DNA of 64,000 nt, taken from a virus (Duplodnaviria > Caudoviricetes). A program made the translations under genes and the position numbers. Positions 5,997 to 63,907 of the stretch are shown here, piece by piece (within the stretch, counting starts at the first letter, position 1; the number at the start of each line of letters is the position of its first letter). Below the pieces are notes generated by a model. It made no database searches, had not been told where the DNA came from, and saw only the letters and a program-made list of their open reading frames with translations. The DNA lies in IMG/VR virus record IMGVR_UViG_3300028805_000086, positions 1 through 64,000 of that record. One strand, given 5' to 3'.

Positions 5997-7307
5997 TTGG
6001 CTGAAATGAATCAGGATGCACTGTCTTTTGGTCAAAGACTAAAACATGCATGGAATGTATTTACTGGTAGAGATCAGCAGAGAATCTTTCAACAAGATCT
6101 TGGTGCCTCCTATTATACTCGACCCGATAGAGTTCGTCTTAAATTAGGAAATGAACGAACTATATTGGCTAGTATTTATAGCAGAATTGCAATCGACGCC
6201 GCTAGTGTTAAAATTCAGCATGTACGTCTTGATGACTCAGATCGGTATATAGAGACTATTGATTCTGGTTTAAATTATTGTTTGAATGTAGAATCAAATA
6301 TTGATCAAACATCACGAGCGTTTAAACAAGATTTATACATGAGCATGCTGGATGAAGGGGTTGTGGCTGTTGTACCTGTAGATACTAGTTATAATCCTAT
6401 GGATACCAGTAGTTTTGATATTAATAGCCTTAGAACTGCTAAAATCTTGGACTGGTATCCGCAACATGTGCGACTTGAAATTTATAATGACCGAACGGGT
6501 CAGAAGGAAATTAAAATTCTTCCAAAAGAAACAGTCGCAATTATAGAAAACCCTCTTTATGCTGTGATGAACGAACCGATTTCTACTTTGAAACGGTTAA
6601 TTCATAAATTGAATTTGCTGGATAATGCCGATGAACAAAGCCTTAGTGGAAAATTGGACTTGATCATTCAATTGCCATACCCGATCAAGACTGAAATGCG
6701 AAGGCAGGAGGCAGAAAAGCGTCGTCGAGATATCGAAACGCAATTAACCAGCAACCGGTATGGCATCGCTTATACTGATGGAACCGAAAAGATAACTCAG
6801 TTAAATCGTGTTGTCGAAAATAAACTCATGGACCAAATCGAGTACTTTACGAGCATGCTATACAGCCAGTTGGGGATGACGAGGGAAGTCTTTGAGGGTA
6901 CTGCCGACGAACGAGTTATGTTGAATTATATCACTCGGACCATCGAGCCTCTTGTTGCTACTACCGCAGATGAGCTTAATAGAAAATTTCTAACAAAAAC
7001 AGCTCGAACAAGACATCAGCAAATAATGTATTTCAATGACATCTTCAAACTGGCGACTATGGACTCTATTGCGTCTGCTGGAAGCCAGTTGGTTGTTTCT
7101 GAAGTCATTACTAAGAATGAGCTTCGTCAAAAGATGGGTTACAAGCCTGTTAATGATCAAGCCGCAGATCAGCTGATGAACCCCAATATTAATCCTCAAA
7201 ATGGAAGCCAGATTCTATCAAGCGGGGAGAATACTGTGAATTTAACAAAGGATAGCGGTAGCGAGGGAATCAGCCTCTCTGAAATGAAGGTATCAGAGAT
7301 TATGTAA
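5997..7307 (+). CDS. Portal protein
   Basis: 436 aa between terminase and protease; SIYSRIAIDAA and ITKNELRQKMGYKP portal-type motifs. Confidence 0.9.
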   Translation: MAEMNQDALSFGQRLKHAWNVFTGRDQQRIFQQDLGASYYTRPDRVRLKLGNERTILASIYSRIAIDAASVKIQHVRLDDSDRYIETIDSGLNYCLNVESNIDQTSRAFKQDLYMSMLDEGVVAVVPVDTSYNPMDTSSFDINSLRTAKILDWYPQHVRLEIYNDRTGQKEIKILPKETVAIIENPLYAVMNEPISTLKRLIHKLNLLDNADEQSLSGKLDLIIQLPYPIKTEMRRQEAEKRRRDIETQLTSNRYGIAYTDGTEKITQLNRVVENKLMDQIEYFTSMLYSQLGMTREVFEGTADERVMLNYITRTIEPLVATTADELNRKFLTKTARTRHQQIMYFNDIFKLATMDSIASAGSQLVVSEVITKNELRQKMGYKPVNDQAADQLMNPNINPQNGSQILSSGENTVNLTKDSGSEGISLSEMKVSEIM

Positions 7308-10824: not shown

Positions 10825-11295
10825 ATGATTAAGAAGACTATTACTTTTGAAGATTATAATGGTGAAGAGCGCACTAAGGACTTTTATTTCCATATGAACC
10901 AGGTTGAATTCTCTAAGTTGAATGGTGAGGTTCCTGGTGGAATCGAACGTCGTATGCAGAAGATTATTGAAGATCGTGATGAAGATGCACTGCTTCGCAT
11001 TATTGATTTGCTGGTTAGCCGGAGCTATGGTGAATTCGATGACGAAGATGAGTTCACTAAGGTTAGCAAGACTGGTCGTCCTCTGTATGAAAAGTTTGTT
11101 AATACCGATGCTTATGACCAGCTGATCATTGAACTGATTCAGAATGAAGATAACATCGTGAATTTCTTGAAGAACATTATGCCTAAGAAGGTTCAGGGAC
11201 GAATCGATGAAGAAATGCATAAGCGGCAGGAAGAAGAAAATAAGGCTGTTAAATTGACTCCTGTATCTGCAGACGCTTCTTCTACCGTGGAGTGA
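10825..11295 (+). CDS. Tail assembly chaperone
   Basis: MIKKTITFEDYNGEERT; between tube and tape measure; RBS gaaaggag. Confidence 0.75.
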   Translation: MIKKTITFEDYNGEERTKDFYFHMNQVEFSKLNGEVPGGIERRMQKIIEDRDEDALLRIIDLLVSRSYGEFDDEDEFTKVSKTGRPLYEKFVNTDAYDQLIIELIQNEDNIVNFLKNIMPKKVQGRIDEEMHKRQEEENKAVKLTPVSADASSTVE

Positions 11296-12244: not shown

Positions 12245-15200
12245 ATGCCTGGAAAAGACACACGTGTTGTTGAAATGCAATTTCAAAATAAAGATTTTGA
12301 GAAGAACATTGCAACCAGTCAGAAATCTCTTAATAGATTCAAGAAAGATCTGAACTTCGATGACACCTCCAAAGGCCTCGAAAAGTTCGGCAAAAGCATG
12401 GACTCTTTAAAATTCGATAAATTCTTTGATAATATTCAAAGACTTACCGATAAATTTACAGGAATCGGCGATATCGGTGAATTTATGATTTCAAAGATTC
12501 GTCATTCTTTAGAAGAAGCTGCAAATAGTGCTATAAGATTCTCTAAAAGTCTCACTTTTGATCAGGTTGATGCTGGTAAAGAGAAATTTGAACAACTTAA
12601 TAAGAGCATTCAGACGATTAAAGCAGCTACTGGAAAAACAGAAGAAGAAGTACAGGGTGTTCTTAAGCGTTTGAATGATTATACTGATATGACAAGCTAT
12701 AGTTTTTCAGATATGGCTTCGAATATTGGTAAATTTACTTCTGTTGGTATTCCGCTTGAACAAGCAGAAAAACAGATGGAAGGTATTGCTAACTGGGCCG
12801 CTCGTTCTGGTGCTGGTATAGCAGAAGCTTCTCGTGCTATGTATAATTTAAGCCAGGCAATGGGTGTTGGTTCATTGAAATTGATGGACTGGAAATCCAT
12901 TGAGAATGCTGGTATGGCGACCAAAGAGTTTAAACAACAGTTAATCGAAGCTGGATTGGCTGCTGGCACATTGGTTGCCGAAGCGAAAAAAGATGCTAAT
13001 GGCGTGGAACAGATTGTTTACAAAACTGCTAAAAATTTAGGTAAGCAGGTCGAAGTAAACTTTCAAAATATGTCTCAGACCTTAAGTAAGGGATGGGCCA
13101 ATACAACAGCCATTGGTAATGCTTTGCTTGGATATTATTATGAAGATCTTAAGTTCGAGAACGAAGAAGGAATGAAAGATCTTACGGACGATCAGAAGAA
13201 AATGTTTGATGAAATGTTCAAACAGTATGGCAAGATTGATGATAAATCTTGGAAAAAACTTTCTGATCAGGGTCTTGGCTCCGATGATCTTAAGCAAAGT
13301 TTATTGGACACTGCTGAAGCTATGGGTGCTTTAACTGCAGAAGTTAATGCTGATGGCAAAAAGATTTATACAACTACTGATAAGACTGGAAAGAAGATAG
13401 AATTTACTCTTGATACTTTTGAAAAAGGTCTTGGTGGTGGCTGGTTAACTCGTAGTATTGCCAAAACAGTTTATTCATTTGATGACCTTGCTAAAGGTTC
13501 TTATGATGCTGCTATGAAGTGCCTGTCTTTCACCGATGTACTAAATGCCTGGAAAGATATGATTAGTACAGGATGGATGGCTTCAATTCAGCATATATTT
13601 GGTGGATTGTCTGATTCCATAGAAGTATTTACAGCGATGTGCGATAAAGCTGGAGAAATGCTAGGTAACATATTCGGCGTAAATGGTGCTATTAATAAAA
13701 TACTCGGTTTGTGGGATACAAAAGAGCACCGTGATACTTTATGGGGAATGATCATTGGTGAATATGGTGAAGGCGAAGACAAACTTTATGCAGGCGCTTA
13801 TGGTTTATTAGATGTAATAAAAGATGTTGGCAGTATTATTTCTGGAGCTTTCTGGGATATAATGAAAGACTTCGCCGAACCATTTTATGGCGAGGATAAA
13901 CTTGAAGAATGGGAAAACGATACTGAAGTTCGATATCAATTTCTTGCAGATCAAATGCAAGTATTTGTTGAAAAAATACGTTATGCTATTCTTAATATTA
14001 AAGAATTCTTTCAGGAAATACCAGAAGGCGCATCCAAGAGTCGCTGGGAAACGATTAAAGATATTGTCGGTGCTGTTTTTAGAGTAGTAAGTATTGCTGC
14101 ACAAACGATTAGCGGTATATTTACATTCTTTGGCAAAATTAAAAAGCAACTAGAGCCAAGTATAATAGCAGTTTCTGATTTGATTACTTCTTTGGCTGGC
14201 GGTATTACAGGCGCTGAGAAAGATTTACGTAAATCGAAAGGCATTCAAACATTCTTTTCTAATTTTGCCGATGCTCTAGTTCCAGTAACTAATTTTATTA
14301 ATAAGGTAGTCGTAGGTTTAGCTAAATTAATAAAAGGTTTCTTTGAATGGGGAATAGAAGGCGGTAACTTCATAAAAATATGGGAAACCATAAAGTCTGT
14401 ATTCAAGGGAATTATTAATATATTTGACAAGATCAGTGGTCCAATTTTAGACTTCTTTAAAGAGATTGGCCCTGCAATTGGAGATTTCTTTACTAAAGGG
14501 CTCAATAAAGATACTTTAAAGAATTTTGGAAAAACTTTAGGCAAGTCATTAGGTAATCTTATAAATACTCTTGTTAATTATATTCCTGGATTATGGAGTA
14601 AAATTAAGAATTTCTTCTCAAGTATCTTTAATACAGCAAAAGACGTGCTTGGTGCTGAAGAACCTGGAATATTGAATTCAATTATTAACTTTATAAAAGG
14701 CGTATTTGGCGGAGTTTGGGAATTCTTAAAGAATCTTGGAAATCGTTTATCTGATGAAAATTCTTTAGCAAGTCTTATATTACGACTTCTTGGAACTGGA
14801 ATTGGATTTGTTGCTGATTTATTAGGTAAAATTCGTGATTCAATAAGCGGTATTTCATTATACGATGTCGTAATAATGATTACTGGTGGTTTTATATTGT
14901 TTACTGCATTTTCACTTATTAAGTCAGCGCTTAATGTTATTAGGGGCATTTCCGAAATTGTTGGCGGTTTTGGAGAAATTTTAGATGCTATTGCATATCG
15001 AATCAGAGGTGTTGACAGTAGCGAAAAGTTCCTTCGTGTGTCACAAGGAATTGCACTTATTGCATTAGCTGTCGTTGTATTAGGGCAGATGAAGTGGCAA
15101 GAAGCCCTTCAAGGTGTTATTGCTATTGGTGCAATCGGCGGTATTGTTATACTTTTAACGAAAGTAATGACAAAAATGCTTGAGAAAGTTAAATTCTCAA

Positions 15201-18200
15201 GTACTATAAAAATGGCTATTGCACTTGCATCTTTGAGTGCAGGATTGCTAATTTTCTCGGCTGGTGTATTTGTACTTGTTCGAGCATTAAAACCTCTTGC
15301 TAATACAAATTGGGAAGGCCTTGCAAAGATGGGTGTAGGCCTTGCTGGAATATTATATTTATTCTCTTTATTCTCATTCGTTAGCAAGCTTGCAAAAGTT
15401 AGTTTCAAATCAATGGCCGGATTGGGCATACTTGCCATTGGCATCGGGATTCTTGTGGATTCTCTTAAACCCTTGGCCGAAGTTAATTGGTCTCAAATGG
15501 CTAAAATGGGTGTTGGACTTGCGGCTATTTTATTGATGTTCGCTGGATTTAGTCGCATTATGGGTAGCATTAAAGATAAAGGAATAAGTCAAACTGCATT
15601 CCTGGCTATTGGCATCGCTATACTTGTGCAATCTTTATTGCCTCTTGTTAGTATGGATTGGAGTCAAATGGCTAAAATGGGGGTTGGTCTATTAGCTATT
15701 CTCGTCCTTCTTGCTGGTTTTAGTCATATTGCCGGATCGCTTAAAGGCAAAGGAATGTTCAGTACTATCACTTTAGCAGCCGGTATTGTTATTCTTATGG
15801 AAGCAATCAAACCATTAGCCGATTATAATTGGGAAAAACTCGGCAAAATGGGTGCTGGTTTGCTTGTTGTGTTGTTCTTCCTTGCTGAATTCACAAAAAT
15901 ATCCGGAAGCTTAAAAGGCAAGAGTATGAAGAGTACAATTGCTTTGGCTCTTGGAATTATATTGTTAATGGAAGCAATTAAGCCATTGGCGGAGTATAGC
16001 TGGGAAAAACTTGGAAAAATGTTTGCAGGCCTTACTCTTACGCTTCTTGAATTAGCCGAATTTACAAAGTTAATGGTTAGCATTAAAGATAAAGGAATGA
16101 GCAAAATCATTCTTTTAGCTGCTGGAATATGGATTCTAATGGAAACCATTAAACCGCTTGCCGATATTAATTGGGAAGATCTTGGCAAAATGTTTGCTGG
16201 ACTTGGTGTAGTTTTGTTCGAACTTGCTGAATTTAGTAAACACATGGCAAGTGTAAAAGACAAGGGTCTTGGTAACACTATTCTTCTTGCTGCTGGCATT
16301 TATATTCTGATGGAAGCTCTCAAACCCCTTGGCGAAATGGATTGGGAAGCTATCGGAAAAATGGGTGCCGGACTTACTGGCATATTAGTAATACTGGTTG
16401 CTGCAAGTAAAAAGATGGGGCAGATTAAAGCTAAAACTTCCTTTGGTGTTCTGCTTTTCAGCGTTGCTTTGTACGGACTATTATATGTCTTAAAGCCTCT
16501 TGCTAATTACAAGTGGGAAGAATTAGGCAAATTAGGAGTAAGTTTACTGGCGGTAATACTGATGCTTGGTGTAGCAGCCAAAGCAATTAAGGGCATTGAC
16601 TGGAAGAGCGCCGTAGGATCATTTGCTATGATGCTTGGTATGGCTGTAATGATTTCTGTATTTGGAAAGACAGTTGACAAAGTAAAAGATATTAAATCAA
16701 CTAAGTTATTAGCATTTGCCGGATCAATTGTTATTCTTTCAATAGCAATAAGAATTGTATTATCTTCGATTAATAAATTGGAAGCACAGTCTAAAGGCGT
16801 CGAAATCGGTAGTAAACTGGCAATGATTGCTGCGGCATTGGTTACCGTTGGTTTACTGATGTTTGAACTGTCTTTGCTTATACCGAGGATTAACAGTGCA
16901 AATATTAAGAAACTTTTAGGTTTCTCAATTGCTGTTGATTTGTTAATGCCATCAATGATTATTGCGGCATCAGCTATTAACAAGATTAATAATGTTCGGA
17001 CGGGGGCTGATGTTGGTAAAAAGTTGGCTCTCATTGGTATGGCTTTAATTTCAGTTGGCATATTAATGGCAGAACTTGCACTATTTATTCCACGGATTAA
17101 TAATAGTGATACACTGAAGATATTAGGTTTCTCAATAGCGGTTGATGTTTTAATGCCGTCTTTGATTATAGCTGCTATAGCAATTAATAAAATTAATGAC
17201 GTTCGCACTGGTGCTGATGTTGGCAAGAAATTTGCTTTAACTATTGCTGCTTTAATCTCAGTAGGTGTATTGATGGCGGAATTAGCATTATTCATTCCAA
17301 GAATTAATAATGCCGATATTCTAAAAGTCGCAGGTTTTTCTGTTGCTGTAGATATTTTAATGCCCTCGCTGATTATTGCTGCGATGGCGATCAATAAGAT
17401 CCAGGTTCCAAAAACTGGTAAAGAAACGTTCGGAAAGTTTTCTTTACTTATCGGAGCATTGATATCTGTTGCTGTAATTATGGGTGAACTTGCATTGCTT
17501 ATTCCTTTAATTGATAGCACTGATGATTGGCTTGAAAGTAGTGCCAAGTTAATAGGATTTGCTATCGCTGTAGAAGCTGTAATGCCAGCATTGATTACTG
17601 CAGCTATGGCAATTAACAAAATTAAAGTTACGACTGTGGCAAAGGGATCTGGAAAAAATAAAAAAGAAGCGACATCAATAAAAGAAACATGCGAAAAATT
17701 ATTGTTATTCTCTGGAGCTATCGCAGCTGTTGGACTATTAATGTTTGAATTGGCATTGCTACTTCCTATTATTGATGGAATGAAAGATTGGGCTGAAAGT
17801 AGTGCAAAATTAATAGGTTTTGCAGTTGCCGTAGAAGCAGTTATGCCTGCATTAATTACGGTTGTAATTGCCATGAATAAAATAAGGGTTCCTAATATTG
17901 GTGGTAAACAGTCTAAAAAAGGAAAGAATAATGGATCAAATAATAAAAAGTTTGATCAGGTTTATGCTTTGATTAGTCTTGTTGGCACTGCTGTTTTAGC
18001 TATGGGTCTTATTATGGCGGAGCTTGCATGGATTGCACCTCGTATCGATAGTCTTGATAATTGGGCCGAAAGTAGTGCTAAACTAATAGGCTTTGCGGTC
18101 GCTGTCGAAGCTGTTATGCCCGCGTTAATATCCGTTGCTAAAGCGATTAATACTATAAAGGTTCCAACTTTAAAAACCGGAGGAAAAAAAGTAGACGCAA

Positions 18201-21200
18201 CCAAATATTATAAGGGACGAAAACAGCGAGTTAAAGAACATGATGTAACATCGAACGATGGCAATGAACAAGTATTGCCATTTAAGCAGTTGCTTGGATT
18301 CTTTGCTGTAATTGGTATAGCTGTTTTAGCTATGGGCCTTATTATGGCTGAGCTTGCATGGATTGCACCTCGTATCGATAGTCTTGATAATTGGGCAGAA
18401 AGTAGCGGTAAACTAATAGGTTTTTCTATTGCTGTTGAGGCCGTTATGCCTGCATTAATTGTAGTTGCTAAAGCTATCAATGAAATTAAAATACCTACAA
18501 TGATGAAGGGCAATGGCAAAAATAAGAAAGAAGAAACTATTAAGTTTAAAGAGCTTACTGGATATTTTGGAATAATTGGAATTGCTGTATTGGCTATGGC
18601 TGCTATTATGAGCCTTCTTGCATTGTGGACTCCATATATTGGCAAGATGGATGAAGGTTCAATAGGCAAATTATGGGGATTTGCTATAGCTTTTGAAATA
18701 ATTATGCCTGCATTGATTACCGTTGCCAAAGCTATTAATGAAATTAAGATTCCAACATTGTCTAATGGAACTGGTAAGGATAAGAAAACGGCGACTATTA
18801 AGTTTAAAGAATTAACTGGATATTTTGCAATAATTGGAATTGCTGTATTAGCGATGGGCGCCATTATGGCTGAATTTGCAGTCATAATACCGTTAATCAA
18901 TAAAATTGATAGTTGGGAAGGTTTAGCTAAGCTTGTTGTATTTGCAATAGCATTCGAACTAATAGTTCCAGCGCTCTTAAATGTTGTTGATGCAATTAAT
19001 AAAGTAAAAATACCTAAAATAGATAAAAAGCCTGCGAAATTTAAAGACTTAACTGGTTATTATGCAGTTATTGGTATAGCGGTATTGACTATGGGAGCTG
19101 TTATGGCTGAACTTGCAGCACTTATTCCGCTTATTAACGGCATCGATAGCTGGGAAGGTTTAGCAAAGCTTGTTGTATTTGCTTTTGCTATTGATTTGGT
19201 TATGCCTGCTTTGATAACAGTTGCAGAGGCTATAAGTAAAATAGAATTACCTAAAAATGGTAAACAACTTTATAAAGCAAAAGATTTAAGTGGGTATTTT
19301 ATAACAATAGGACTTGCAGTTGGAGCCATGGCTGTGGTTATGGCAGAACTAGCATTCTTAATTCCTTTGATTAATGACATTGATAGCTGGGAAGGTTTAG
19401 CTAAGCTTGTTGTGTTTGCTTTTGCTATTAATCTGGTTATGCCTGCTTTAATAACTGCTGCTGAAGCTATTAATTCTATTGAATTGCCGATGAACGGGAA
19501 AAAAGTTCTTAAAGCAAAAGATTTAAGTGCTAAATTTGCATTAATAGGAATGGCGATTGGTACTGTTGCTTTGCTTATGGGCGAACTTGCTCTATTGATT
19601 CCTGCTATTAATGGAATAGAAGGAATTGGCGGCATGGTTAAATTAGTAGTATTCACTATTAGTATTAACATTTTAATGGCTTCATTGAGTACCGTTGTAC
19701 AAGCCATTAACGATATTAAGACACCTACATCAAAAGAAGCTCTTAAGAAGAAGATGCTTATTCTTGCTGAGGTAATGGGCGTAGTTGCGCTGCTTACTGC
19801 AGAAATGGCATTGTTTATTTATAGAATTAACGATGCTGATATTATTCGTTTAATAGGTTTTGCAATTGCTGTCAGAGCACTAATGCCAGCCCTTAATAGT
19901 GTTGTAAAAGCTATAAACAATATTCAGACGCCGACTTCCAAAGAGGCTCTTACTAAGAAACTTTGGATTCTTGGCGGATCTTTGATAACCGTTGCCGTTA
20001 TCATTGCAGAAATGTCATTGTTTATTGATCAGATTAATTCTAGTGATTTTGAGAAATTGTTAGGATTTGCCGCTGCCGTATATCTGGTTATGCCATCCCT
20101 TGAAAAAGTAGTTGGTATGATTAATGATATTGAAGCTCCTGAAGAAGGCAAAGAACTTGGTTTTAAAATGGCCATTCTTGGAGGTGCATTTATTGCCGTT
20201 GCTGCTATTATTGCCGAGTTGGCACTACTTTCAAATCAAATAAATAATTCAAATTTCGAAAGTATGCTTGGAATAGCAGCTGCAGTATATCTTATTCTTC
20301 CGGCCTTAAGCAAAGTAATAGAAGCTATTGGTGAAATTGAAGCTCCTGAGGAAGGCAAAGAAGTAGGATTTAAGCTGGCTATTATGGCAGGCGCATTAAT
20401 TGCCGTTGCTGCAATTATAGCCGAACTTGCGCTTCTTGGTGGAATGATAAGTAATGCCGACGTTCTCAAAATTATGGGTTTTGCTCTAGCTGTTGATATT
20501 ATCATGCCAGCTTTGATTATGGCAGTTTATGCAATTAATAAGATCGAAGCTCCTGAATCATGGGGTGATGTCGGCAAAAAGATAGCAATGATGGCTGTCG
20601 CTGTTATTGCCGTTGGCGGCTTGATGGCAGTGCTTGCTCTTGTGATCGATAAAGTTCAGGGAATTGAGCCAGTTGCAATGCTTGCGTTTACTGCAGGCGT
20701 ATTAGTACTTGGCATAGCAGTTGCTTTGATGGTTGCTGTTATTGGCGGAATTAAGCAGTCAGCTATGAATAATCTAGGCAAAAAGTTAGCTGTAATTATT
20801 GTAGCAGTAATCGCTATTGGCGCACTTATGTATATCTTTAGCGAAATGTTAGACTCAATAAAAGATATCGATCCAAAAGCGATGCTTACATTCTCAGCAA
20901 GTATTATATTGTTAGTAATAGCACTTGCTGGTGCTGCTGCTATTATATCAGTACTTGGTAAAGTTGATGCTGGTACTATTGCAAAAGGTTCAGCTGGTTT
21001 AGTTGCAGTTGGAACAGCACTAGGAGCCGTGATCGATGTTATAGCTGGATTTGCAGCTAGCGCTATCGATAAAATGACTAGCGCTTTAATCGATATTGGT
21101 ACTTCTTTAAGATGGTTTGATGAAGATGTTTCTTTGGTTAACTCAGATCGTGTTAGAGATGGAATGAGTTTAGTTAAAGATTTATGTGAACTAGCCATTT

Positions 21201-23878
21201 ATGTGGCCGATAAAGGTGATCTTTCTGGGAATATTGACCGATATTCTACAACCATGGCTCGACTAGGTGCTGGTATTTCTTTATTTAATGGAAATGCCGG
21301 AGGATCGGCTGGTATAAGTAGAGCTAAAACTGCTATCTCTGATATTGTTGAAATGTCAAGTGAGCTTTCAGCGTTAACCACAATAAGCGATGTATCTAGT
21401 ACAATATCGAATATAGCAGGCGCAATTAAAATCTATATCAATACGCTTGAAGGTAAGACCTTAGAAGGAACGCCTGATTCTAGTAAAATAAGAGATGTAT
21501 TTATTGCTTTAAATGAAGCCATTCCAGATGATACAATGGTCGCTGACGCATCAGCCTTTGCTGATGAAACAAAAGCGTCTTCATTAAATTCTTATGCGAT
21601 AGGCTTAGCTAATATTTCTACTGCTTTAGAATCATTTGCTAAAGGTACCGAAACGATGGACTTTAAGTCTATTAGCACGGCGATCACTAAACTTCAAGCA
21701 ATTTCTGATCTCGGGCCCCTTATTAAAGAAACTGTTACAACAAAAGTTGATATTGGGGGTTTTATAACTTTTGAAAAAGAGGTTGTAAAAGAAAAAGAAA
21801 GTTTGCAATCTTTTGCTACAGATATTACGTCGCTTACTACTGCTTTAACCAACTTCGGTACAGAAATGGGAAATATTACTGACGAAGGTTGGGGTCGAAT
21901 TGATGCTGGAATTGGTCATTTGCAAGCTTTTGCTAAACTTGAAGGTAGTTTAACGCCTCTTGGAGGTCTTGTAGAATTCGTCATTGGCAAAAGAGATTTA
22001 ACTTCTTTTAGCAAAAAGATTGGACCATTAGGCAAAGGCTTAAAAGAATTTTGTGATCATATTGTTGGAGCACCATCATTAAACAATGGGGAAGCAGATA
22101 CCGCTTCTGATGTGTTGATTAAATTAGCAACAGCAGCTTCAACTATGCCACGTAATTCTGGAATATTTTCTAAGTTTTCAAATACTAACATTACAAAATT
22201 TGCAGATCAAATACCTTCTTTGGGTACAGGTGTTTGCGGATATGCTAATGCTGTACGAGATATAACTGGTTTGGGAAGTGAAAAATTAGAAACCGCAACC
22301 AAGGTTCTTGTTGCCATTTGTGAAGCTGCTTCTAAAATTCCTGCAAATGAAGGAATGATTACTTTATGGAGCAATATTGATTATGATAAATTTGGCGACG
22401 GATCAATGACTTCTCTTGGTAAAGGCGTAACTAATTTTGCAGAAGCTGTTAAATCTGCACCCGGATTATCTGATACAAGTTTAGAAACCGCAACTAAGGT
22501 CCTTGTTGCCATTTGTGAAGCTGCCGCATTGATTCCTGAAAATTCTGGATTAGTTACCTTGTTTAAAGGTGTTAACTATTCAACATTTGAGAGTGATATG
22601 GGGCATATGGGTGCTGGTTTGCTTGCTTTTGCTAGAAATGTTGGAGGTCTTGTAGCTCAGGATCATAAACTTAAAGCTAAAGACTTAACTGATGGAGAAC
22701 GTGAAAATATTCAGGTTGTCACAAGTATAGTTGATTCTTTTACTAAGTTAATCGAAATACTTTCAACTTTAACAGATTTGAGTACAGATTTAACAAGTGC
22801 GAGCGAACGTATAAAAAAGAAAATGTCAGAAATTGGAAATGATCTTGGCCAAGCGATGATATTGTTCTTAGAAGGCTTTTTTAATGAGAATGAAGCAAGC
22901 GCCGATGTACGTAGAGATAAACTAGATAAAATTGTAAGTGAATATGATACCTATTTACCAGCAATTGAAGAATTTGTCGAAGTGCTTTCTGGATTATCTT
23001 CAATTTCGTTCATTAATCCTTCTAATATAGAAACCATGCTTACAGGTGTTTCTACTGGCTTAACCTCTATATTAACGTTTGATGACGAAATACCATGGAC
23101 TCAAAAGCATAACAACATATTGGATCGAGTTGTGAATATATGTGATGCTCTTGGTAAAATGCGTGATTATATTGGCGCTTACGAATCTAAGTCTATAGAG
23201 AAATGGTTTGGCGATCTAGTTAATGCCTATTATATGTATCGAAAAGCAATACTATACGAAGGTTGGGATGATCGTAGAGAAAATGTAACCAATCATATTA
23301 TCAAAATATGTGAAGGATTAGGATTAATTAGTGATTATATTCATGATTATAATTCTAAATCTATAGAACAATGGTTTGTTGATTTAGTAGATGGATATAA
23401 AGCATTTGCCGATGGCATCAATAATATTTATGCTGATGAAAGTGGGCAATTTGCTTGGACTGAAGGAACACAAACCGCTTTTGATAGAATTAAAGAAATG
23501 GTTAATATTATACAAACCCTTGATGGTATTGAATCACCAACAATTTCTCCGGTTATGGACTTTAATACAGTTGAACAGCAGCTAATGCAATGGGGTAATA
23601 AGCCACTTCCTGGTATAAGTACCATGCTAAATGGTGATATTAGCTTGAAATTGGATGCTTCTCAATTAGAAGCCATCACTCCCAAAGATTACACAGTTTA
23701 TTTCGATTCAATAACTACAAAGATGAACGAAATGAATAAAGATATTGTTAATCTTGGTAGTGAGATACGGCGTATGAAAGTTGTTATGGACACTGGTGCT
23801 GTTGTTGGCGCCATTGGCGATGGTGTTGATTACCATATTGGTAAAAACGCATTCTTTGAATCGCGGTTAAAAGGTTAA
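12245..23878 (+). CDS. Tape measure protein (3877 aa)
   Basis: N-terminal tape-measure domain (LNDYTDMTSYSFSDM...ASRAMYNLSQA) and long amphipathic/hydrophobic repeats; followed by a Dit-like gene. Confidence 0.95.
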   Translation: MPGKDTRVVEMQFQNKDFEKNIATSQKSLNRFKKDLNFDDTSKGLEKFGKSMDSLKFDKFFDNIQRLTDKFTGIGDIGEFMISKIRHSLEEAANSAIRFSKSLTFDQVDAGKEKFEQLNKSIQTIKAATGKTEEEVQGVLKRLNDYTDMTSYSFSDMASNIGKFTSVGIPLEQAEKQMEGIANWAARSGAGIAEASRAMYNLSQAMGVGSLKLMDWKSIENAGMATKEFKQQLIEAGLAAGTLVAEAKKDANGVEQIVYKTAKNLGKQVEVNFQNMSQTLSKGWANTTAIGNALLGYYYEDLKFENEEGMKDLTDDQKKMFDEMFKQYGKIDDKSWKKLSDQGLGSDDLKQSLLDTAEAMGALTAEVNADGKKIYTTTDKTGKKIEFTLDTFEKGLGGGWLTRSIAKTVYSFDDLAKGSYDAAMKCLSFTDVLNAWKDMISTGWMASIQHIFGGLSDSIEVFTAMCDKAGEMLGNIFGVNGAINKILGLWDTKEHRDTLWGMIIGEYGEGEDKLYAGAYGLLDVIKDVGSIISGAFWDIMKDFAEPFYGEDKLEEWENDTEVRYQFLADQMQVFVEKIRYAILNIKEFFQEIPEGASKSRWETIKDIVGAVFRVVSIAAQTISGIFTFFGKIKKQLEPSIIAVSDLITSLAGGITGAEKDLRKSKGIQTFFSNFADALVPVTNFINKVVVGLAKLIKGFFEWGIEGGNFIKIWETIKSVFKGIINIFDKISGPILDFFKEIGPAIGDFFTKGLNKDTLKNFGKTLGKSLGNLINTLVNYIPGLWSKIKNFFSSIFNTAKDVLGAEEPGILNSIINFIKGVFGGVWEFLKNLGNRLSDENSLASLILRLLGTGIGFVADLLGKIRDSISGISLYDVVIMITGGFILFTAFSLIKSALNVIRGISEIVGGFGEILDAIAYRIRGVDSSEKFLRVSQGIALIALAVVVLGQMKWQEALQGVIAIGAIGGIVILLTKVMTKMLEKVKFSSTIKMAIALASLSAGLLIFSAGVFVLVRALKPLANTNWEGLAKMGVGLAGILYLFSLFSFVSKLAKVSFKSMAGLGILAIGIGILVDSLKPLAEVNWSQMAKMGVGLAAILLMFAGFSRIMGSIKDKGISQTAFLAIGIAILVQSLLPLVSMDWSQMAKMGVGLLAILVLLAGFSHIAGSLKGKGMFSTITLAAGIVILMEAIKPLADYNWEKLGKMGAGLLVVLFFLAEFTKISGSLKGKSMKSTIALALGIILLMEAIKPLAEYSWEKLGKMFAGLTLTLLELAEFTKLMVSIKDKGMSKIILLAAGIWILMETIKPLADINWEDLGKMFAGLGVVLFELAEFSKHMASVKDKGLGNTILLAAGIYILMEALKPLGEMDWEAIGKMGAGLTGILVILVAASKKMGQIKAKTSFGVLLFSVALYGLLYVLKPLANYKWEELGKLGVSLLAVILMLGVAAKAIKGIDWKSAVGSFAMMLGMAVMISVFGKTVDKVKDIKSTKLLAFAGSIVILSIAIRIVLSSINKLEAQSKGVEIGSKLAMIAAALVTVGLLMFELSLLIPRINSANIKKLLGFSIAVDLLMPSMIIAASAINKINNVRTGADVGKKLALIGMALISVGILMAELALFIPRINNSDTLKILGFSIAVDVLMPSLIIAAIAINKINDVRTGADVGKKFALTIAALISVGVLMAELALFIPRINNADILKVAGFSVAVDILMPSLIIAAMAINKIQVPKTGKETFGKFSLLIGALISVAVIMGELALLIPLIDSTDDWLESSAKLIGFAIAVEAVMPALITAAMAINKIKVTTVAKGSGKNKKEATSIKETCEKLLLFSGAIAAVGLLMFELALLLPIIDGMKDWAESSAKLIGFAVAVEAVMPALITVVIAMNKIRVPNIGGKQSKKGKNNGSNNKKFDQVYALISLVGTAVLAMGLIMAELAWIAPRIDSLDNWAESSAKLIGFAVAVEAVMPALISVAKAINTIKVPTLKTGGKKVDATKYYKGRKQRVKEHDVTSNDGNEQVLPFKQLLGFFAVIGIAVLAMGLIMAELAWIAPRIDSLDNWAESSGKLIGFSIAVEAVMPALIVVAKAINEIKIPTMMKGNGKNKKEETIKFKELTGYFGIIGIAVLAMAAIMSLLALWTPYIGKMDEGSIGKLWGFAIAFEIIMPALITVAKAINEIKIPTLSNGTGKDKKTATIKFKELTGYFAIIGIAVLAMGAIMAEFAVIIPLINKIDSWEGLAKLVVFAIAFELIVPALLNVVDAINKVKIPKIDKKPAKFKDLTGYYAVIGIAVLTMGAVMAELAALIPLINGIDSWEGLAKLVVFAFAIDLVMPALITVAEAISKIELPKNGKQLYKAKDLSGYFITIGLAVGAMAVVMAELAFLIPLINDIDSWEGLAKLVVFAFAINLVMPALITAAEAINSIELPMNGKKVLKAKDLSAKFALIGMAIGTVALLMGELALLIPAINGIEGIGGMVKLVVFTISINILMASLSTVVQAINDIKTPTSKEALKKKMLILAEVMGVVALLTAEMALFIYRINDADIIRLIGFAIAVRALMPALNSVVKAINNIQTPTSKEALTKKLWILGGSLITVAVIIAEMSLFIDQINSSDFEKLLGFAAAVYLVMPSLEKVVGMINDIEAPEEGKELGFKMAILGGAFIAVAAIIAELALLSNQINNSNFESMLGIAAAVYLILPALSKVIEAIGEIEAPEEGKEVGFKLAIMAGALIAVAAIIAELALLGGMISNADVLKIMGFALAVDIIMPALIMAVYAINKIEAPESWGDVGKKIAMMAVAVIAVGGLMAVLALVIDKVQGIEPVAMLAFTAGVLVLGIAVALMVAVIGGIKQSAMNNLGKKLAVIIVAVIAIGALMYIFSEMLDSIKDIDPKAMLTFSASIILLVIALAGAAAIISVLGKVDAGTIAKGSAGLVAVGTALGAVIDVIAGFAASAIDKMTSALIDIGTSLRWFDEDVSLVNSDRVRDGMSLVKDLCELAIYVADKGDLSGNIDRYSTTMARLGAGISLFNGNAGGSAGISRAKTAISDIVEMSSELSALTTISDVSSTISNIAGAIKIYINTLEGKTLEGTPDSSKIRDVFIALNEAIPDDTMVADASAFADETKASSLNSYAIGLANISTALESFAKGTETMDFKSISTAITKLQAISDLGPLIKETVTTKVDIGGFITFEKEVVKEKESLQSFATDITSLTTALTNFGTEMGNITDEGWGRIDAGIGHLQAFAKLEGSLTPLGGLVEFVIGKRDLTSFSKKIGPLGKGLKEFCDHIVGAPSLNNGEADTASDVLIKLATAASTMPRNSGIFSKFSNTNITKFADQIPSLGTGVCGYANAVRDITGLGSEKLETATKVLVAICEAASKIPANEGMITLWSNIDYDKFGDGSMTSLGKGVTNFAEAVKSAPGLSDTSLETATKVLVAICEAAALIPENSGLVTLFKGVNYSTFESDMGHMGAGLLAFARNVGGLVAQDHKLKAKDLTDGERENIQVVTSIVDSFTKLIEILSTLTDLSTDLTSASERIKKKMSEIGNDLGQAMILFLEGFFNENEASADVRRDKLDKIVSEYDTYLPAIEEFVEVLSGLSSISFINPSNIETMLTGVSTGLTSILTFDDEIPWTQKHNNILDRVVNICDALGKMRDYIGAYESKSIEKWFGDLVNAYYMYRKAILYEGWDDRRENVTNHIIKICEGLGLISDYIHDYNSKSIEQWFVDLVDGYKAFADGINNIYADESGQFAWTEGTQTAFDRIKEMVNIIQTLDGIESPTISPVMDFNTVEQQLMQWGNKPLPGISTMLNGDISLKLDASQLEAITPKDYTVYFDSITTKMNEMNKDIVNLGSEIRRMKVVMDTGAVVGAIGDGVDYHIGKNAFFESRLKG

Positions 23879-55362: not shown

Positions 55363-55438
55363 TGTCGCACGAGAAACACGTGTATAAATAGGAGATAACG
55401 AAACGTTGTCTCTTTAATTTTTTACAAATTGGAGGAGA

Positions 55439-55960
55439 ATGAAAACTATGGCTAAGACTAAACGAATGAAGGAATTCAAGGAACGGCTTAAGAGGAATGG
55501 AGAATTCTTTGTAGGCCAAATCGAGAAATCCAAGATGGACCAGTGCGACGAATTTATTGATAAACTGGCCAACATTCTTGGTGACAACTATGAGATGGTT
55601 GCCTCATGCAATAAAGACCTTAGCCGGTATCTCGTTCCTAAAGGAACAAAAGATCAGATTACTTATTATGGAAAACCTGAAATGAGTTTCCGAGTAAGTG
55701 ATCATTGGAACTGGTATTCCAGTACAGAAAAGTGTACGAATGAGCGCTATGTTCAGTGCTTCAGCATGGACCTCCCCAATCCTCGTCCAAGACCGGCTCC
55801 TGGTGTAGGCACCAATGCAATCAGTGCGTATCAGGTCGCTATCCAAGTGGACGGACGATACCATCATGTATTCGGCGACAAATATAATCGTCGAATTCGT
55901 AGATGGGAATGGGAAGAAAATGATCCGGAGAAAATTCTCCAGCAGTATAATTTGATTTAA
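55439..55960 (+). CDS. Hypothetical protein
   Basis: SRYLV...SFRVSDHWNW; ggagg RBS. Confidence 0.75.
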   Translation: MKTMAKTKRMKEFKERLKRNGEFFVGQIEKSKMDQCDEFIDKLANILGDNYEMVASCNKDLSRYLVPKGTKDQITYYGKPEMSFRVSDHWNWYSSTEKCTNERYVQCFSMDLPNPRPRPAPGVGTNAISAYQVAIQVDGRYHHVFGDKYNRRIRRWEWEENDPEKILQQYNLI

Positions 55961-55967
55961 CAAATTC

Positions 55968-56462
55968 GATGGCAGCTAATGTGATTTACTACTTTTATAA
56001 AAGATTGATAAAGACAATCGCATAATTACGCCATCCCGTAAAGCACTGGATTCTAATCTTAAAAGCTAAATTGGCTTACTTCACATAATACTTTAAATAT
56101 TAAATAGTCAATTAATTTCTTTACAGATTAGAAACCAGTCATGAGGAAGCTATTCAAACTTACTACTACTTTTAAAAAGATGCTTAAAAATAGTTTGAAA
56201 ATCTCTCCTCAAATCACCTCCTTTATTCCTAGCTAGTGTTGCTTACTTCATTGGCGGATATGAAGCAGCACAATATCAGGAGGTGCACTATTCTGGAAGG
56301 ATCTTGGCAGCTAACATAATTTACTTCATAATTATAGATTTTTTATTATTCAATTATGTGCTTTCGCCAAGGTCCTTTCATTTCCTTTCTTTTTTGTAAG
56401 CTAACAGGGCTTACTTCACATAAATAAATTAATTTAATTCAGTCCTGTAATTTTATGCAAAA
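55968..56462 (+). ncRNA. Tandem array of six structurally identical RNA stem-loops
   Basis: Each unit: P1 stem, AGCTA, 8-bp P2, loop beginning TACT(T/A)C, P2', ~6-nt linker, P1'. AGCTA at 55974, 56064, 56148, 56231, 56309, 56399. Confidence 0.85.
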
Positions 56463-56488
56463 ATGATATTTGAAAGGAGCAAATCAAA

Positions 56489-57580
56489 ATGGAAAAGATT
56501 TTTAAGGACTATCTGTTTCAGCATCATATTTTGGTGTCTGAAAAAGAAGGCACTATTGGTGAGGCCTTCAACACAATCACTGCTCTAGCGAATGTTTACA
56601 GTATTCGCATTGTTAAAGGAGCAAAATATGCTTGTGAGAGCATGCTGCAGGATGCAGCCGATAATTTAGGAGATCGTGTACCAGAACCATTTTACAGAAT
56701 GTTTCCTAACTCTGTCAGAGCGATGACACCGGATCAACTGCTGTACGATCAGCTTTATCACTATACTCAGACGTATGGCATGGGCTGGTTCGATGCTCCA
56801 GCGGGGCATTCTATTTTCGAAGAAGAGACTCCTTCAGAAATGGCGGATGAGTCTAATCGCGAAAAATTCTTCGATAAAATGGTCGTAGAAAAATCCGAGG
56901 CTAAGAATTTTGTGATCATGACCGAAGACGATGCCGTTGCTAAATTGGTTGAATATCTTCGTGAATTGATCGAAAGTCCTCGACCTCTCAATGAAGGGCA
57001 AATGCGTTTTCTTTACGAAGGATTCATCAAATATGATACGGCAATTACTGCTAATACGAATATTCCTTGTAAAAGAATCGCAGTTGAGCTTTTCTATCTG
57101 ACAAAGAGTATTGTATTTGCTAAAAAGCTTAAGCTTAGTGATACCATTAAGCTTGTTGAATATATTCAGAATAACTTGTATGGAAGTACCGATCTTAAGA
57201 AGCTTAATTTCAAGAATAAAGATCGGAAATTAATCACTGCTTTTATTGATTATCATCTTTCCGCTGAGCATTTTGAAGGTTATAAAGAAGTTCGGAAAGC
57301 CTTCAATCAGCGTAAAATTTGGTGCGGCTTGCTGCATCATATTCATTATAAACCGAAAGGCCGGATTGCTCAGAAGTTTGTAAAAGATATTCGTGAAGGC
57401 AAAAATCAGTCTTTGAATAGTGGTTTCGAGCGGTGTATGCGCCATGATCGACCTGTAGAAGCTGCTGAATACCTTAAGAACAATGAAGGAAGCGGTGCAC
57501 TTATGAGAAATATGAATTATATTCTCAGTCGCTGCAAGAACGACAAGGAGATTGAGGAGGTGATCTCATGTCTGGAGTAA
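56489..57580 (+). CDS. Alpha-helical TROVE/Ro-like protein (tentative), N-terminal half of a TerD-associated family
   Basis: EPFYRMFP, LYDQLYHY, LNFKNKDRKLI, GALMRNMNYIL; overlaps the next ORF. Confidence 0.6.
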   Translation: MEKIFKDYLFQHHILVSEKEGTIGEAFNTITALANVYSIRIVKGAKYACESMLQDAADNLGDRVPEPFYRMFPNSVRAMTPDQLLYDQLYHYTQTYGMGWFDAPAGHSIFEEETPSEMADESNREKFFDKMVVEKSEAKNFVIMTEDDAVAKLVEYLRELIESPRPLNEGQMRFLYEGFIKYDTAITANTNIPCKRIAVELFYLTKSIVFAKKLKLSDTIKLVEYIQNNLYGSTDLKKLNFKNKDRKLITAFIDYHLSAEHFEGYKEVRKAFNQRKIWCGLLHHIHYKPKGRIAQKFVKDIREGKNQSLNSGFERCMRHDRPVEAAEYLKNNEGSGALMRNMNYILSRCKNDKEIEEVISCLE

Positions 57581-58638
57581 ATCCTATTATTCTTATTCAG
57601 ATGCTGAATCAGTATCATAACTATAAAGAAGGGAATCGTATTTTCAGATTTGTTAAGAATAATCTTATGAAAGTGCATACTGAAACCGATAAAGAAATGG
57701 CTAAGCGCAAGTCTGTTCTTAGTAAGAAGACAAGAGATGTTGCAGCAAGGGCCATTCGGAATCGGCTTGACAAATACCTTGATGGCAAAATTGGGAATCT
57801 TTATATTTCTGATAAGATGAAGAATATTACAGTGCCGCTTCAGCTCAGTACGAGTGAAAGCGGTTATGGCGTTCTTTCTACAGGAAGTCGGATTGATATT
57901 CCTGAAGGCCGGTTTATCAGAGCATTCACTTATTGGGAAAAGGTAAACGACATTGATATTTCCGGATTTGCTATCAAGGAAAACGGGGAGCAAATGGAAT
58001 TTAGCTGGCGTAATATGTGGTATAAGCAAAGCGAAGAAATTTGCTTCAGTGGCGATGAAACTAACGGATATTATGGCGGAAGCGAATACTTCGATATTGA
58101 TCCAGAGTTATTCAAGAAAAATAATCCCGACTACAGATATATCGTATTCTGTGATAATATTTATACCAGTGGTGGTTCCATTCATTTTAAAGATTGCGAG
58201 GCAACTGGTGGCTTCATGATCCGTGAAAAGATGGAACCGAATACTCGTGGATACGGAAGCGAGGGAAAGACTTTCGAGATATTTGATCCGAAGACGGTAG
58301 AGACCTCGTTCAAACTGCAAAGTGATTCGTCATTCTGCTATATGTTTGCGATCGATCTCAAAAATAGGCAAATGGTTTGGCTTGATATTTCCAGAGAAGG
58401 AAATCATGCAATTGCCGGAGATACCAGTATGAGATGGCTGTTGAACTATATGTCCATGACAGAGGTATATAGCGTATACGATTTGTTTGTATCAATGTGC
58501 ACAAATCATGTAGAAAATCCGAAATACGCGGATATCCTGGTTACGGACGAACCTGATATCAAGCCGATCAAAGAAAATGCCATACTTATCCACAGCTGGG
58601 ATACTGAAAAAATATTTAAGTATCTTCAGGTTGGATAA
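57568..58638 (+). CDS. TerD-like domain protein
   Basis: GSRIDI...IRAFTYW...DIDISG...FSGDETNG...GSEYFDID...FDPKTV...IDLKNRQMVWLD. Confidence 0.7.
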   Translation: MSGVNPIILIQMLNQYHNYKEGNRIFRFVKNNLMKVHTETDKEMAKRKSVLSKKTRDVAARAIRNRLDKYLDGKIGNLYISDKMKNITVPLQLSTSESGYGVLSTGSRIDIPEGRFIRAFTYWEKVNDIDISGFAIKENGEQMEFSWRNMWYKQSEEICFSGDETNGYYGGSEYFDIDPELFKKNNPDYRYIVFCDNIYTSGGSIHFKDCEATGGFMIREKMEPNTRGYGSEGKTFEIFDPKTVETSFKLQSDSSFCYMFAIDLKNRQMVWLDISREGNHAIAGDTSMRWLLNYMSMTEVYSVYDLFVSMCTNHVENPKYADILVTDEPDIKPIKENAILIHSWDTEKIFKYLQVG

Positions 58639-58725: not shown

Positions 58726-58764
58726 AAAAAAAGGGTGTGCAACCAGCATGCCCTTATTTTTTTT
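58726..58764 (+). terminator. Rho-independent terminator
   Basis: aagggtgtgc...gcatgccctt followed by a T tract. Confidence 0.7.
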
Positions 58765-58873
58765 GACTTTTATTTATGGTCATATTGACCGCGTACTAAA
58801 CACGTTTAGTAATGAAGGAACAATATAGTTCTTTCGGTCAAAAATACAAAAAAGAGAAAAGGAGTAATGAACT

Positions 58874-62965: not shown

Positions 62966-63907
62966 ATGGCACGTATAACTACTAAAGACATTATGGAGAA
63001 ATGCAATGTTAAAGTCCAAACTATTTATAATTGGATCAAAGAAGGTCAGCTTCATGGTATTCAGGTTGGCAATGGAAAACTGAAAAAATGGGAGTTTGAA
63101 GAAGAGGAATTTAATCGGTTTCTTCGTGAAGGAAATTATCCAGGAAAAGCCGATTATATTAAAACGAGCGAGTCTTTTACAAGAACGCCCAACGTTGAAG
63201 AATGTTATCCTGTTAACTTGTTGATGGCTGTTATGAATATCAATTCAGACAGAGATCCGATGGATGAAATTTGGAATTATGATATTCGTGCTTTCAAAGA
63301 AGTTATTAATAGTAAACTTACTGATCGTGAACAGAAAGTAATCAGTATGCGCTATCAATTTGGTGCATCGTTATACGAAGCAGGAAAAGCATTTGACGTT
63401 ACTAAAGAGCGTATACGACAAATCGAAGCAAAGGCTCTGCGTAAGCTTGCGCATTATAGCAGAGAAAATGAAAGATGTATTCTTATTTCTAGAGATAAAT
63501 ATGATGAGCTTAATAGTAAGTATACTAAATTGCTCGTCAGTTATGAGCGGGAATTGGCAAAGAACCACGAGAATACCAACATATTAGACACGATTGATAT
63601 TTGCGAGTTAGATTTGTCAGTTCGTCCGTACAATTGTCTTAAACGGGCAAGTATTAACACGCTCCAGGATATTATGGAGTTTGACAAAAACCAGGAAACC
63701 AAACGTAATTGGCTTACAATCAGAAATCTTGGACGAAGAAGTTTGTATGAAATAGCCTATAAAGTGTTTGATTATTGTGGATATAATATTCATCACCTTA
63801 ATGGCGAAGAAATTAAGGAAGGAGATTCTTATTATGGCCAGCAAGCGTACCAAAGAGCAGTGTATCACTTGGCTGAAAAGCGTAGCGGCGGACAAGAACA
63901 GCCTTGA
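62966..63907 (+). CDS. Excisionase-like HTH + sigma-70 region 4 + RNA polymerase alpha-CTD fusion
   Basis: VQTIYNWIKEGQL; LTDREQKVISMRY...VTKERIRQIEAKALRKL; LDLSVRPYNCLKRASINTL...IRNLGRRSLYEI. Confidence 0.85.
   Translation: MARITTKDIMEKCNVKVQTIYNWIKEGQLHGIQVGNGKLKKWEFEEEEFNRFLREGNYPGKADYIKTSESFTRTPNVEECYPVNLLMAVMNINSDRDPMDEIWNYDIRAFKEVINSKLTDREQKVISMRYQFGASLYEAGKAFDVTKERIRQIEAKALRKLAHYSRENERCILISRDKYDELNSKYTKLLVSYERELAKNHENTNILDTIDICELDLSVRPYNCLKRASINTLQDIMEFDKNQETKRNWLTIRNLGRRSLYEIAYKVFDYCGYNIHHLNGEEIKEGDSYYGQQAYQRAVYHLAEKRSGGQEQP

Follow-up and report, generated by a model that had tools for sequence, protein, structure and literature searches.

Background

The question addressed here is what is encoded in the largest intergenic gap of a viral genome, and how it is related to the two genes that follow it. 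The stretch analysed (hereafter the window) covers the first 64 kb of the 95,642-bp IMG/VR virus record IMGVR_UViG_3300028805_000086, which is rated complete; the gap extends from 55960 to 56489 (528 nt). An initial annotation, made from the sequence letters, had reported in this gap six structurally alike RNA units, followed by genes for a TROVE-like and a TerD-like protein, and had proposed that they form a phage ribonucleoprotein system. According to the analysis presented below, the locus probably encodes a divergent ribonucleoprotein of the Ro60/Y-RNA type, with a TerD domain in place of the vWA domain, a new RNA recognition module and, in this phage, six minimal RNAs. Established here, and the basis of this reading, are the fold of the RNAs and its covariation, the strict linkage of these RNAs to one protein family, the TerD fold and the ranking of Ro60 among structural neighbours.

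Structure of the six-unit array

Exact copies of the pattern AGCTA-N8-TACTWC start on the + strand at 55974, 56064, 56148, 56231, 56309 and 56399, and no further copy was found on either strand of the whole 95,642-bp genome. The eight variable bases form one side of a helix (P2), the pairs of which (55979/56016, 56069/56106, 56153/56192, 56236/56264, 56314/56352 and 56404/56441) are complete in all cases (8/8), with one G-U pair each in units 1, 2, 4 and 6. The minimum-free-energy fold of positions 55940-56500 reproduced six times the same succession of an outer stem (P1), an internal loop, P2 and a terminal loop. In the internal loop, the 5' AGCUA faces a 3' strand of 6-7 nt, of the general form RAUWUC; the terminal loops (20-31 nt) are AT-rich and begin with UACUWC. 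Folds of single units kept this architecture, with z-scores of -2.8 to -6.7 relative to dinucleotide shuffles. The units follow each other with a period of 78-90 nt and have about 17 fixed bases in common, their stems being all different. No T-loop or other tRNA-like module was found in the loops of any of the six units. The outer P1 helix of unit 6 (56382-89 with 56472-79) covers the Shine-Dalgarno (SD) sequence GAAAGGAG of the gene starting at 56489.

Upon recheck of the letters and of the minimum-free-energy fold, the units, coordinates, stems, G-U pairs and loop lengths given in the initial annotation were all correct, as were both open reading frames (ORFs; 56489-57580, 363 aa, and 57568-58638, 356 aa). 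The linkers of about 6 nt that it described hold for units 1 to 5, the linker of unit 6 being effectively 7 nt. A guide function, which had been suggested for the loops, was not borne out in the phage genome: in sense or antisense, the six loops matched it over at most 8-13 nt, the same as shuffled controls.

Covariation and linkage to one protein family

A covariance model (R1) was built from a seed of 20 units drawn from the window and 14 loci (15 sources), with P1 and P2 assigned by hand. In the window, R1 retrieved precisely the six units, including unit 4, which was outside the seed (E 3e-5), and nothing credible was found in the remaining 31.6 kb of the phage. The search was run on both strands of 93 loci encoding homologues of the downstream proteins (566 kb) and gave 117 matches at E<=0.01, of which 113 are on the gene's own strand and precede it by no more than 700 nt, and three come just after it. 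At least one match was present in 72 of the 93 loci, and several of those without a match have truncated upstream sequence. The only unit is just downstream of the gene in three loci (L061, L067 and L097), and units are found 0.5-2.7 kb upstream of it in three others (L050, L051 and L098). The co-occurrence of these RNAs with one protein family, which had been put forward as a check of the ribonucleoprotein proposal, was thereby observed.

Covariation was examined on a 117-row alignment fitted to R1. Standard pairs occupied 88% of the pair cells, against 57% in column shuffles and 33-44% when partners were slid by 1-3 columns; double-sided changes were seen in 653 cells, against 222 in shuffles, and 14 of the 15 pairs covary. 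A search for the bare motif was added as a model-independent control: of the 173 occurrences of AGCTA-N8-TACT in the homologue loci, 134 are accompanied within 140 nt by a segment that pairs perfectly (8/8) with N8, compared with 7.7% for shuffled N8. G-U pairs are common in the family (at one P2 position, A-U and G-U are seen in 47 rows each), and the motif was not found on the strand opposite to the gene in any homologue locus. Because G-U pairs are frequent and the opposite strand is devoid of the motif, the selected object is an RNA of the gene's strand, which agrees with the selection on + strand RNA structure claimed at the outset.

In the family, the two final pairs of P2 are fixed (Y-R and U-A), as are AGCUA, UACUUY and a 3' strand of consensus RAUAUC. 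The distance from the end of the last unit to the start codon is 8-30 nt at roughly half of the loci. The SD sequence is situated inside the conserved 3' side of P1 (P1') in 5 of 38 loci, and SD sequestration was consequently rejected as a general rule.

Three other loci retrieved by pattern scan were discarded as chance matches, one being a 10-mer tandem repeat (L003) and two being coding sequences devoid of stems (L004 and L005). With blastn, nothing matching the region was found among 50,697 phage records, and single-protein scans of viral contigs gave no close relative.

A split gene with a putative Ro60-like fold and a TerD fold

A two-unit pattern scan of viral contigs detected a locus (L002) in which four similar units are directly upstream of a 698-aa ORF, P0001. 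This protein aligns collinearly with the products of the two phage genes, P0002 (residues 1-358, 36% identity) and then P0003 (residues 363-698, 39% identity), so that the phage, on this alignment, carries a split form of one protein of about 690 aa. The closest phage relatives (L011 and L012) have the same split site at 44-45% identity, and split N-halves and C-halves recur among cluster representatives, one of which (P0128, also 363 aa) is 98% identical to P0002. A programmed frameshift and a sequencing or assembly error at 57568-57580 were both ruled out, given that the second gene has its own GGAGG-N8-ATG and that the split recurs in L011, L012 and P0128.

The family comprises 1,702 representatives of 50%-identity clusters (E<=1e-3). 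Relatives were found in 227 species-representative genomes, nearly all of them of rumen or gut Lachnospiraceae and other Clostridia, and named members are labelled as "hypothetical", "TerD family protein" or "SCP2". P0002 and P0003 have no Pfam match, P0003 matches the unannotated PHROG family phrog_33734, and nothing relevant was found with the PADLOC library of defence systems. Positions 377-708 of the NCBIfam profile NF041916 (RING domain-containing MXAN_6230/SCO0854) match residues 293-624 of the fused protein P0001 (E 4e-23), and the profile also matches at 57568-58638 in the window; matches in the family range from E 4e-23 to 4e-21, at 81 bits for an equivalog cut-off of 600. This homologous region suggests a wider superfamily in Actinobacteria and Myxobacteria, the N-terminal architecture of NF041916 proteins being different.

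Structures of both halves were modelled confidently with AlphaFold2 using family alignments (N-half, pLDDT 87; C-half, pLDDT 91). The C-half model has the TerD beta-sandwich fold, as confirmed by structure search, and this part of the initial annotation is thus upheld. At the level of sequence, the TerD profile (PF02342) gave no match for P0003 and matched 3 of 68 relatives (best E 2.4e-4). No vWA match was found in the C-half, and hence no C-terminal vWA domain with a metal-ion-dependent adhesion site (MIDAS). For the N-half model, an exhaustive VIA-align search of 48,161 representative chains placed Ro60 at ranks 1, 2 and 3.

Membership of the N-half in TROVE received no support from sequence methods. 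The Pfam TROVE profile (PF05731) matched neither P0002 nor P0001 at E<=0.1 and none of 68 family members at E<=5, and the TROVE hidden Markov model retrieved nothing in the phage genome at E<=10 and nothing in three host genomes. When the family alignment was compared by hhalign with six Bacillota TROVE proteins, the probability was 0.4%, and 4% over 18 columns in a sub-domain run, the TROVE alignment having a Neff of about 2; a search intended to widen this alignment returned only sequences that were at least 58% identical. A sequence-profile search of the PDB with the N-half gave no match, Foldseek against the PDB retrieved generic helical repeats only (TM <0.2), and look-alikes in the ESM Atlas were uninformative, the Atlas model having a pLDDT of 0.41. 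The comparison of 56489-57580 with Ro60 that had been proposed was accordingly divided in its outcome, Foldseek being unspecific and hhalign not significant, with VIA-align giving Ro60 as the top three. The claim of a TROVE-like 363-aa protein agrees with the fold ranking, and the argument from the resemblance of GALMRNM to the TROVE ALLRNL segment is not confirmed, there being no match to TROVE at the sequence level.

Canonical TerD proteins are stand-alone stress proteins of about 190 aa, and we know of no RNA partner for them. Unlike the members of the TerD family (PF02342; Klebsiella TerD, 2kxt; Streptomyces SCO6318, 2qz7), the domain is here embedded in, or paired with, a putatively Ro60-like protein.

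Relation to YrlA and other Y RNAs

Loop lengths in the RNA family are bimodal, with 130 units at 15-60 nt and 38 units at 75-99 nt. Among the 38 long-loop units, a T-loop motif was found in 35, a D-arm motif in 31, and the T-arm ahead of the D-arm in 30; in L030, a 7-bp acceptor-like stem with a short closing loop sits between the two arms. In bacterial relatives, this tRNA-like insert is carried by the first unit. A permuted tRNA mimic is the defining trait of YrlA-type bacterial Y RNAs (PMC4201824), and the order of arms in the long units is, as far as motifs can tell, the permuted order of YrlA. The Rfam model of YrlA (RF02553) matched long units just upstream of the gene at 32-47 bits in 11 of 11 loci tested, scores that are below its gathering score of 69 bits. 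No Y_RNA (RF00019), YrlA or other relevant Rfam family was found in the phage region 55000-57500 at E<=10, and no model of Rfam 15 reached its threshold on these RNAs. The comparison with the Rfam models of Y RNA and YrlA that had been suggested therefore gave no match at threshold, the relatives being similar to RF02553 below threshold. The gene thus adjoins Y-RNA-like genes, with sub-threshold YrlA-like matches upstream of it in all 11 relatives tested and the unit family upstream of it in 72 of 93 loci.

In a full-length alignment with YrlA, P2 takes the position of the YrlA terminal stem, and UACUU that of the internal-loop part of GNCGAAN0-1G, which is the proposed Rsr-binding site (Chen et al. 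2014, PMC4201824). The Ro-binding motif itself (GNCGAAN0-1G or GGUCCGA) was not found: terminal stems are present, with YU-UACUUY at the aligned position and AGCUA/RAUAUC in addition. Short hairpin Y RNAs (YrlB, Yrn2) exist beside YrlA, and in Mycobacterium smegmatis YrlA and YrlB are encoded upstream of rsr and derive from one shared precursor (PMC4201824). The RNAs of the relatives are best described, from their alignment, as YrlA-like with a different stem module, and the six phage units as this stem module without the tRNA-like insert.

Bacterial Ro60 (Rsr) with YrlA and YrlB is similar to the system described here in that the gene for a protein of putatively Ro60-like helical fold adjoins several small RNAs, with a motif-bearing stem made by pairing of their 5' and 3' ends, and in that a tRNA-like domain in permuted order (T-arm, closed acceptor stem, D-arm) occurs in at least one RNA per bacterial locus. 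As with M. smegmatis rsr, the gene follows the RNAs within what is predicted to be a single transcription unit. The present family differs from Rsr-YrlA/YrlB by lacking the TROVE sequence signature, by having a TerD beta-sandwich for vWA/MIDAS and an extra N-terminal subdomain of about 145 aa, and by replacing GNCGAAN0-1G with YUUACUUY and an outer AGCUA/RAUAUC internal loop; in this phage clade, moreover, the gene is split and the RNAs, six in the phage, are without a tRNA-like module. In contrast, phiRo60 of Thermus phage phiLo has a canonical HEAT ring and a vWA domain, is recognised as TROVE, and is accompanied by two RNAs (Yrl1 and Yrl2), not six (PMC12135203; PDB 9l5y).

Other tRNA-like features were noticed in the relatives. 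At L002, the four-unit array is immediately preceded by a tRNA-Ser(UGA)-like sequence (11172-11268, - strand) that combines an acceptor stem of 7 bp and a long variable arm with a T-loop reading UUCGAAU and with an encoded CCA; this sequence was called neither by ARAGORN nor by Rfam. Short units in L032, L057, L060 and L086 contain an inner hairpin, AGA-CUGUAAA-UCU or CUGUUAA, whose loop of 7 nt is similar to an anticodon loop bearing GUA or GUU; this hairpin may be an anticodon-arm mimic.

Layout of the cassette and genomic context

The large genes of the window are all on the + strand and include genes for a terminase, a portal protein, an HK97-type capsid-protease fusion, a tail lysozyme and an integrase; because of these genes, the source is classified by its gene content as a temperate tailed phage; its habitat is the gut or rumen. 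The coordinates of the cassette are given in Table 1. The promoter-like motif listed there occurs in 33 copies between 41265 and 61256 of the window, all on the + strand, for 0.9 expected by chance, and no copy was found in the window scan between 55390 and 58789. We infer that transcription is driven by this motif. Given its position at 55365, the next copy only at 58789 and the terminator at 58731-58765, a single transcript is predicted that would comprise the ORF at 55439-55960, the six RNAs and both protein genes; between the array and the downstream gene, neither a promoter-like motif nor a terminator was found. The product of the ORF at 55439-55960 had no family match in Pfam, PHROG, PADLOC and NCBIfam-type profile scans, and did not cluster with the neighbours of the module at other loci.

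Table 1. Features of the RNA-protein cassette (window coordinates) and RtcB gene pairs flanking the module in two relatives (coordinates of the respective locus). CM, score with the covariance model R1; z, z-score of the single-unit fold.
Feature	Position	Strand	Description
Promoter-like motif YCGC-N6-AACAY-N7-WATR	55365..55390	+	last copy ahead of the array; following copy at 58789
173-aa ORF, function unassigned	55439..55960	+	same predicted transcription unit; outside the conserved module
Unit 1	55968..56035	+	P1 GATGGC/GCCATC, AGCUA, P2 8 bp (one G-U), loop 29 nt, linker AAUUAC; CM 61.5 bits; z -3.1
Unit 2	56045..56139	+	P1 long, bulged; AGCUA, P2 8 bp (one G-U), loop 29 nt, linker AAUUUC; CM 61.4 bits; z -5.4
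Unit 3	56142..56211	+	P1 GAGGA/UCCUC, AGCUA, P2 8 bp, loop 31 nt, linker AAUCUC; CM 56.9 bits; z -3.1
Unit 4	56215..56285	+	P1 CACCUCCU/AGGAGGUG, AGCUA, P2 8 bp (one G-U), loop 20 nt, linker AAUAUC; CM 36.9 bits; z -3.5
Unit 5	56294..56380	+	P1 14 bp, AGCUA, P2 8 bp, loop 30 nt, linker GCUUUC; CM 65.8 bits; z -6.7
Unit 6	56382..56479	+	P1 in two parts, AGCUA, P2 8 bp (one G-U), loop 29 nt, linker 7 nt; CM 62.3 bits; z -2.8
N-half gene, P0002 (363 aa)	56489..57580	+	residues 1-145 alpha/beta subdomain; about 146-363 helical-repeat domain, putative Ro60-like fold
C-half gene, P0003 (356 aa)	57568..58638	+	own SD (GGAGG) and ATG; 13-nt overlap with upstream stop; TerD-fold core about 110-290
Intrinsic-terminator-like hairpin and T8	58731..58765	+	strong; closes the cassette
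RtcB paralogue pair, L037	936-2138 and 5434-6576		order rtcB-HTH-RNAs-gene-rtcB
RtcB paralogue pair, L039	993-2195 and 5341-6513		order rtcB-HTH-RNAs-gene-rtcB

The flanking ORFs of 92 loci were clustered all-against-all. Because no conserved protein neighbour was found in these loci, apart from two recurrent exceptions, the RNA array and the protein gene travel as a self-contained module. The exceptions are a small XRE-type helix-turn-helix (HTH) protein just upstream of the RNAs (11 loci) and the RNA ligase RtcB, which adjoins the module in seven loci and is on both sides of it in L037 and L039 (Table 1). Classically, RtcB is encoded in an operon with rsr and yrlBA, as in Salmonella (PMC7790460, PMC4201824), and these neighbours resemble that rsr-yrlBA-rtcBA operon. 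Clusters of tRNA genes adjoin the module in the related phage loci L011, L014 and L044; ARAGORN detected no tRNA gene in the whole 95.6-kb phage genome.

Further observations concern the surroundings of the module. In one Lachnospiraceae contig (L033), the module is followed, at a distance of about 1.8 kb, by a c-di-GMP-I riboswitch (6530-6625; 62 bits). In the window, a 313-aa protein (62966-63907) combines an excisionase-type HTH, a sigma-70 region 4 and an RNA polymerase alpha C-terminal domain, and the structural gene block contains a single ORF of 3,877 aa (12245-23878).

Alternative explanations

An array located so close to a start codon could be a purely cis-acting 5' leader, in which the protein or another factor would bind the repeated motif in its own mRNA and thereby control translation or stability, no free RNAs being produced. 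Such a leader would account for the proximity of the last unit to the start codon at roughly half of the loci, for the pairing of the unit 6 outer helix with the SD sequence in the phage, and for the absence of a promoter-like motif or terminator between array and gene. It does not account for the loci in which the RNA comes after the gene (L061, L067, L097) or 0.5-2.7 kb upstream of it (L050, L051, L098), nor for an SD sequence inside P1' in only 5 of 38 loci, and three to six tandem copies and tRNA-like domains matching YrlA would be unexpected. A purely cis-acting leader is considered unlikely, and less likely than a ribonucleoprotein of the Ro60/Y-RNA type, with which a leader role is compatible as a second function. 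Another possibility is that the RNAs are stand-alone decoys, either tRNA-derived or simple hairpins, directed for example against host RNases or anticodon nucleases; the protein would then not be needed, and the linkage would reflect co-inheritance in a mobile cassette. The tRNA-like inserts of the relatives, the clusters of phage tRNA genes near some loci and the otherwise unconserved neighbours, as in mobile cassettes, are in line with this explanation. Yet 113 of 117 model matches are directly upstream of one protein family, with none elsewhere in the 95.6-kb phage, the invariant AGCUA, UACUUY and RAUAUC point to one common protein partner, and the phage units are without any tRNA-like part. 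Y RNAs fail to accumulate without Ro60. Stand-alone decoys are regarded as very unlikely.

The tandem arrangement, the regular spacing (period of 78-90 nt) and the non-coding gap are also features of DNA-level elements (iterons, origins, recombination or packaging sites) and of CRISPR or type III antitoxin-type arrays. The units share short fixed motifs only (about 17 fixed bases), the stems all differ and covary, many of the G-U pairs would be C-A on the other strand, and the strand bias is strict; the near-identical direct repeats of CRISPR and ToxI arrays were not found. Because of the covariation and of the strand bias, the DNA-level and repeat-array explanations are excluded, with a residual probability that is close to nil.

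TerD domains have been proposed to be sensors of Ca2+ or of nucleotide derivatives. The module could accordingly represent a separate class of ribonucleoproteins in Clostridia and their phages, the activity of which would be gated by TerD in this sensor role; the phage version would be a counter-measure, with six minimal RNAs that retain the module for protein binding and have no tRNA-like effector module, and that would act during infection as dominant-negative decoys or as alternative scaffolds redirecting the host ribonucleoprotein, a host exoribonuclease or RtcB repair. This is thought improbable.

Proposed mechanism

Under the preferred reading, that of a divergent Ro60/Y-RNA-type ribonucleoprotein, the six tandem small RNAs and the two genes would probably be co-transcribed from the promoter-like motif at 55365 to the terminator at 58731. 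The RNAs would then be cut from the precursor, by analogy with YrlA and YrlB upstream of rsr in M. smegmatis. The protein may bind them through the P2-closing Y-R and U-A pairs with UACUUY and through the AGCUA/RAUAUC internal loop. A phage Ro60 with two Yrl RNAs binds the host PNPase (PMC12135203), and by analogy with Rsr-YrlA-PNPase, phiRo60-Yrl-PNPase and the rsr-yrl-rtcBA operon the particle may act on host RNA turnover or repair during infection. The first RNA of bacterial relatives would carry a tRNA-like effector module, which would have been lost in this phage clade, where minimal units would instead have been multiplied to six; these minimal units may serve as scaffolds, or they may act as decoys that occupy the same binding site. 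As the outer helix of unit 6 covers the SD sequence, autoregulation is a possible second role in this phage. Of the ribonucleoprotein system first proposed, the array, the linkage, the TerD fold and the Ro60-like fold ranking are kept; the short-motif argument is not confirmed, and the guide role finds no support within the phage genome.

Conclusions

The kind of system, Ro60 with Y RNA, is already known. Ro60/Y-RNA particles are known from animals, from a limited set of bacteria and from a few phages, and to our knowledge they have always been found through prior detection of a TROVE protein. Full-text searches on TROVE with TerD, on Y RNA with TerD, and on SCO0854 retrieved nothing that describes such a protein or the RNAs beside it; the protein architecture, the RNA recognition module, the minimal six-unit array and the size of the family thus appear to be new. 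The present results point to a large family, abundant in gut and rumen Lachnospiraceae and in their phages, that has been missed by sequence annotation. If the proposed reading is true, the range of the Ro/Y-RNA system would come to include the dominant Firmicutes of the gut, and the family would constitute a natural experiment in the co-evolution of RNA-protein recognition, in which the stem module, the motif and the change from vWA to TerD occur together. The covariance model would be able to annotate more than 100 new small RNAs, and the minimal six-unit array of the phage would offer a compact setting in which to study the function of the Y-RNA stem module in isolation.

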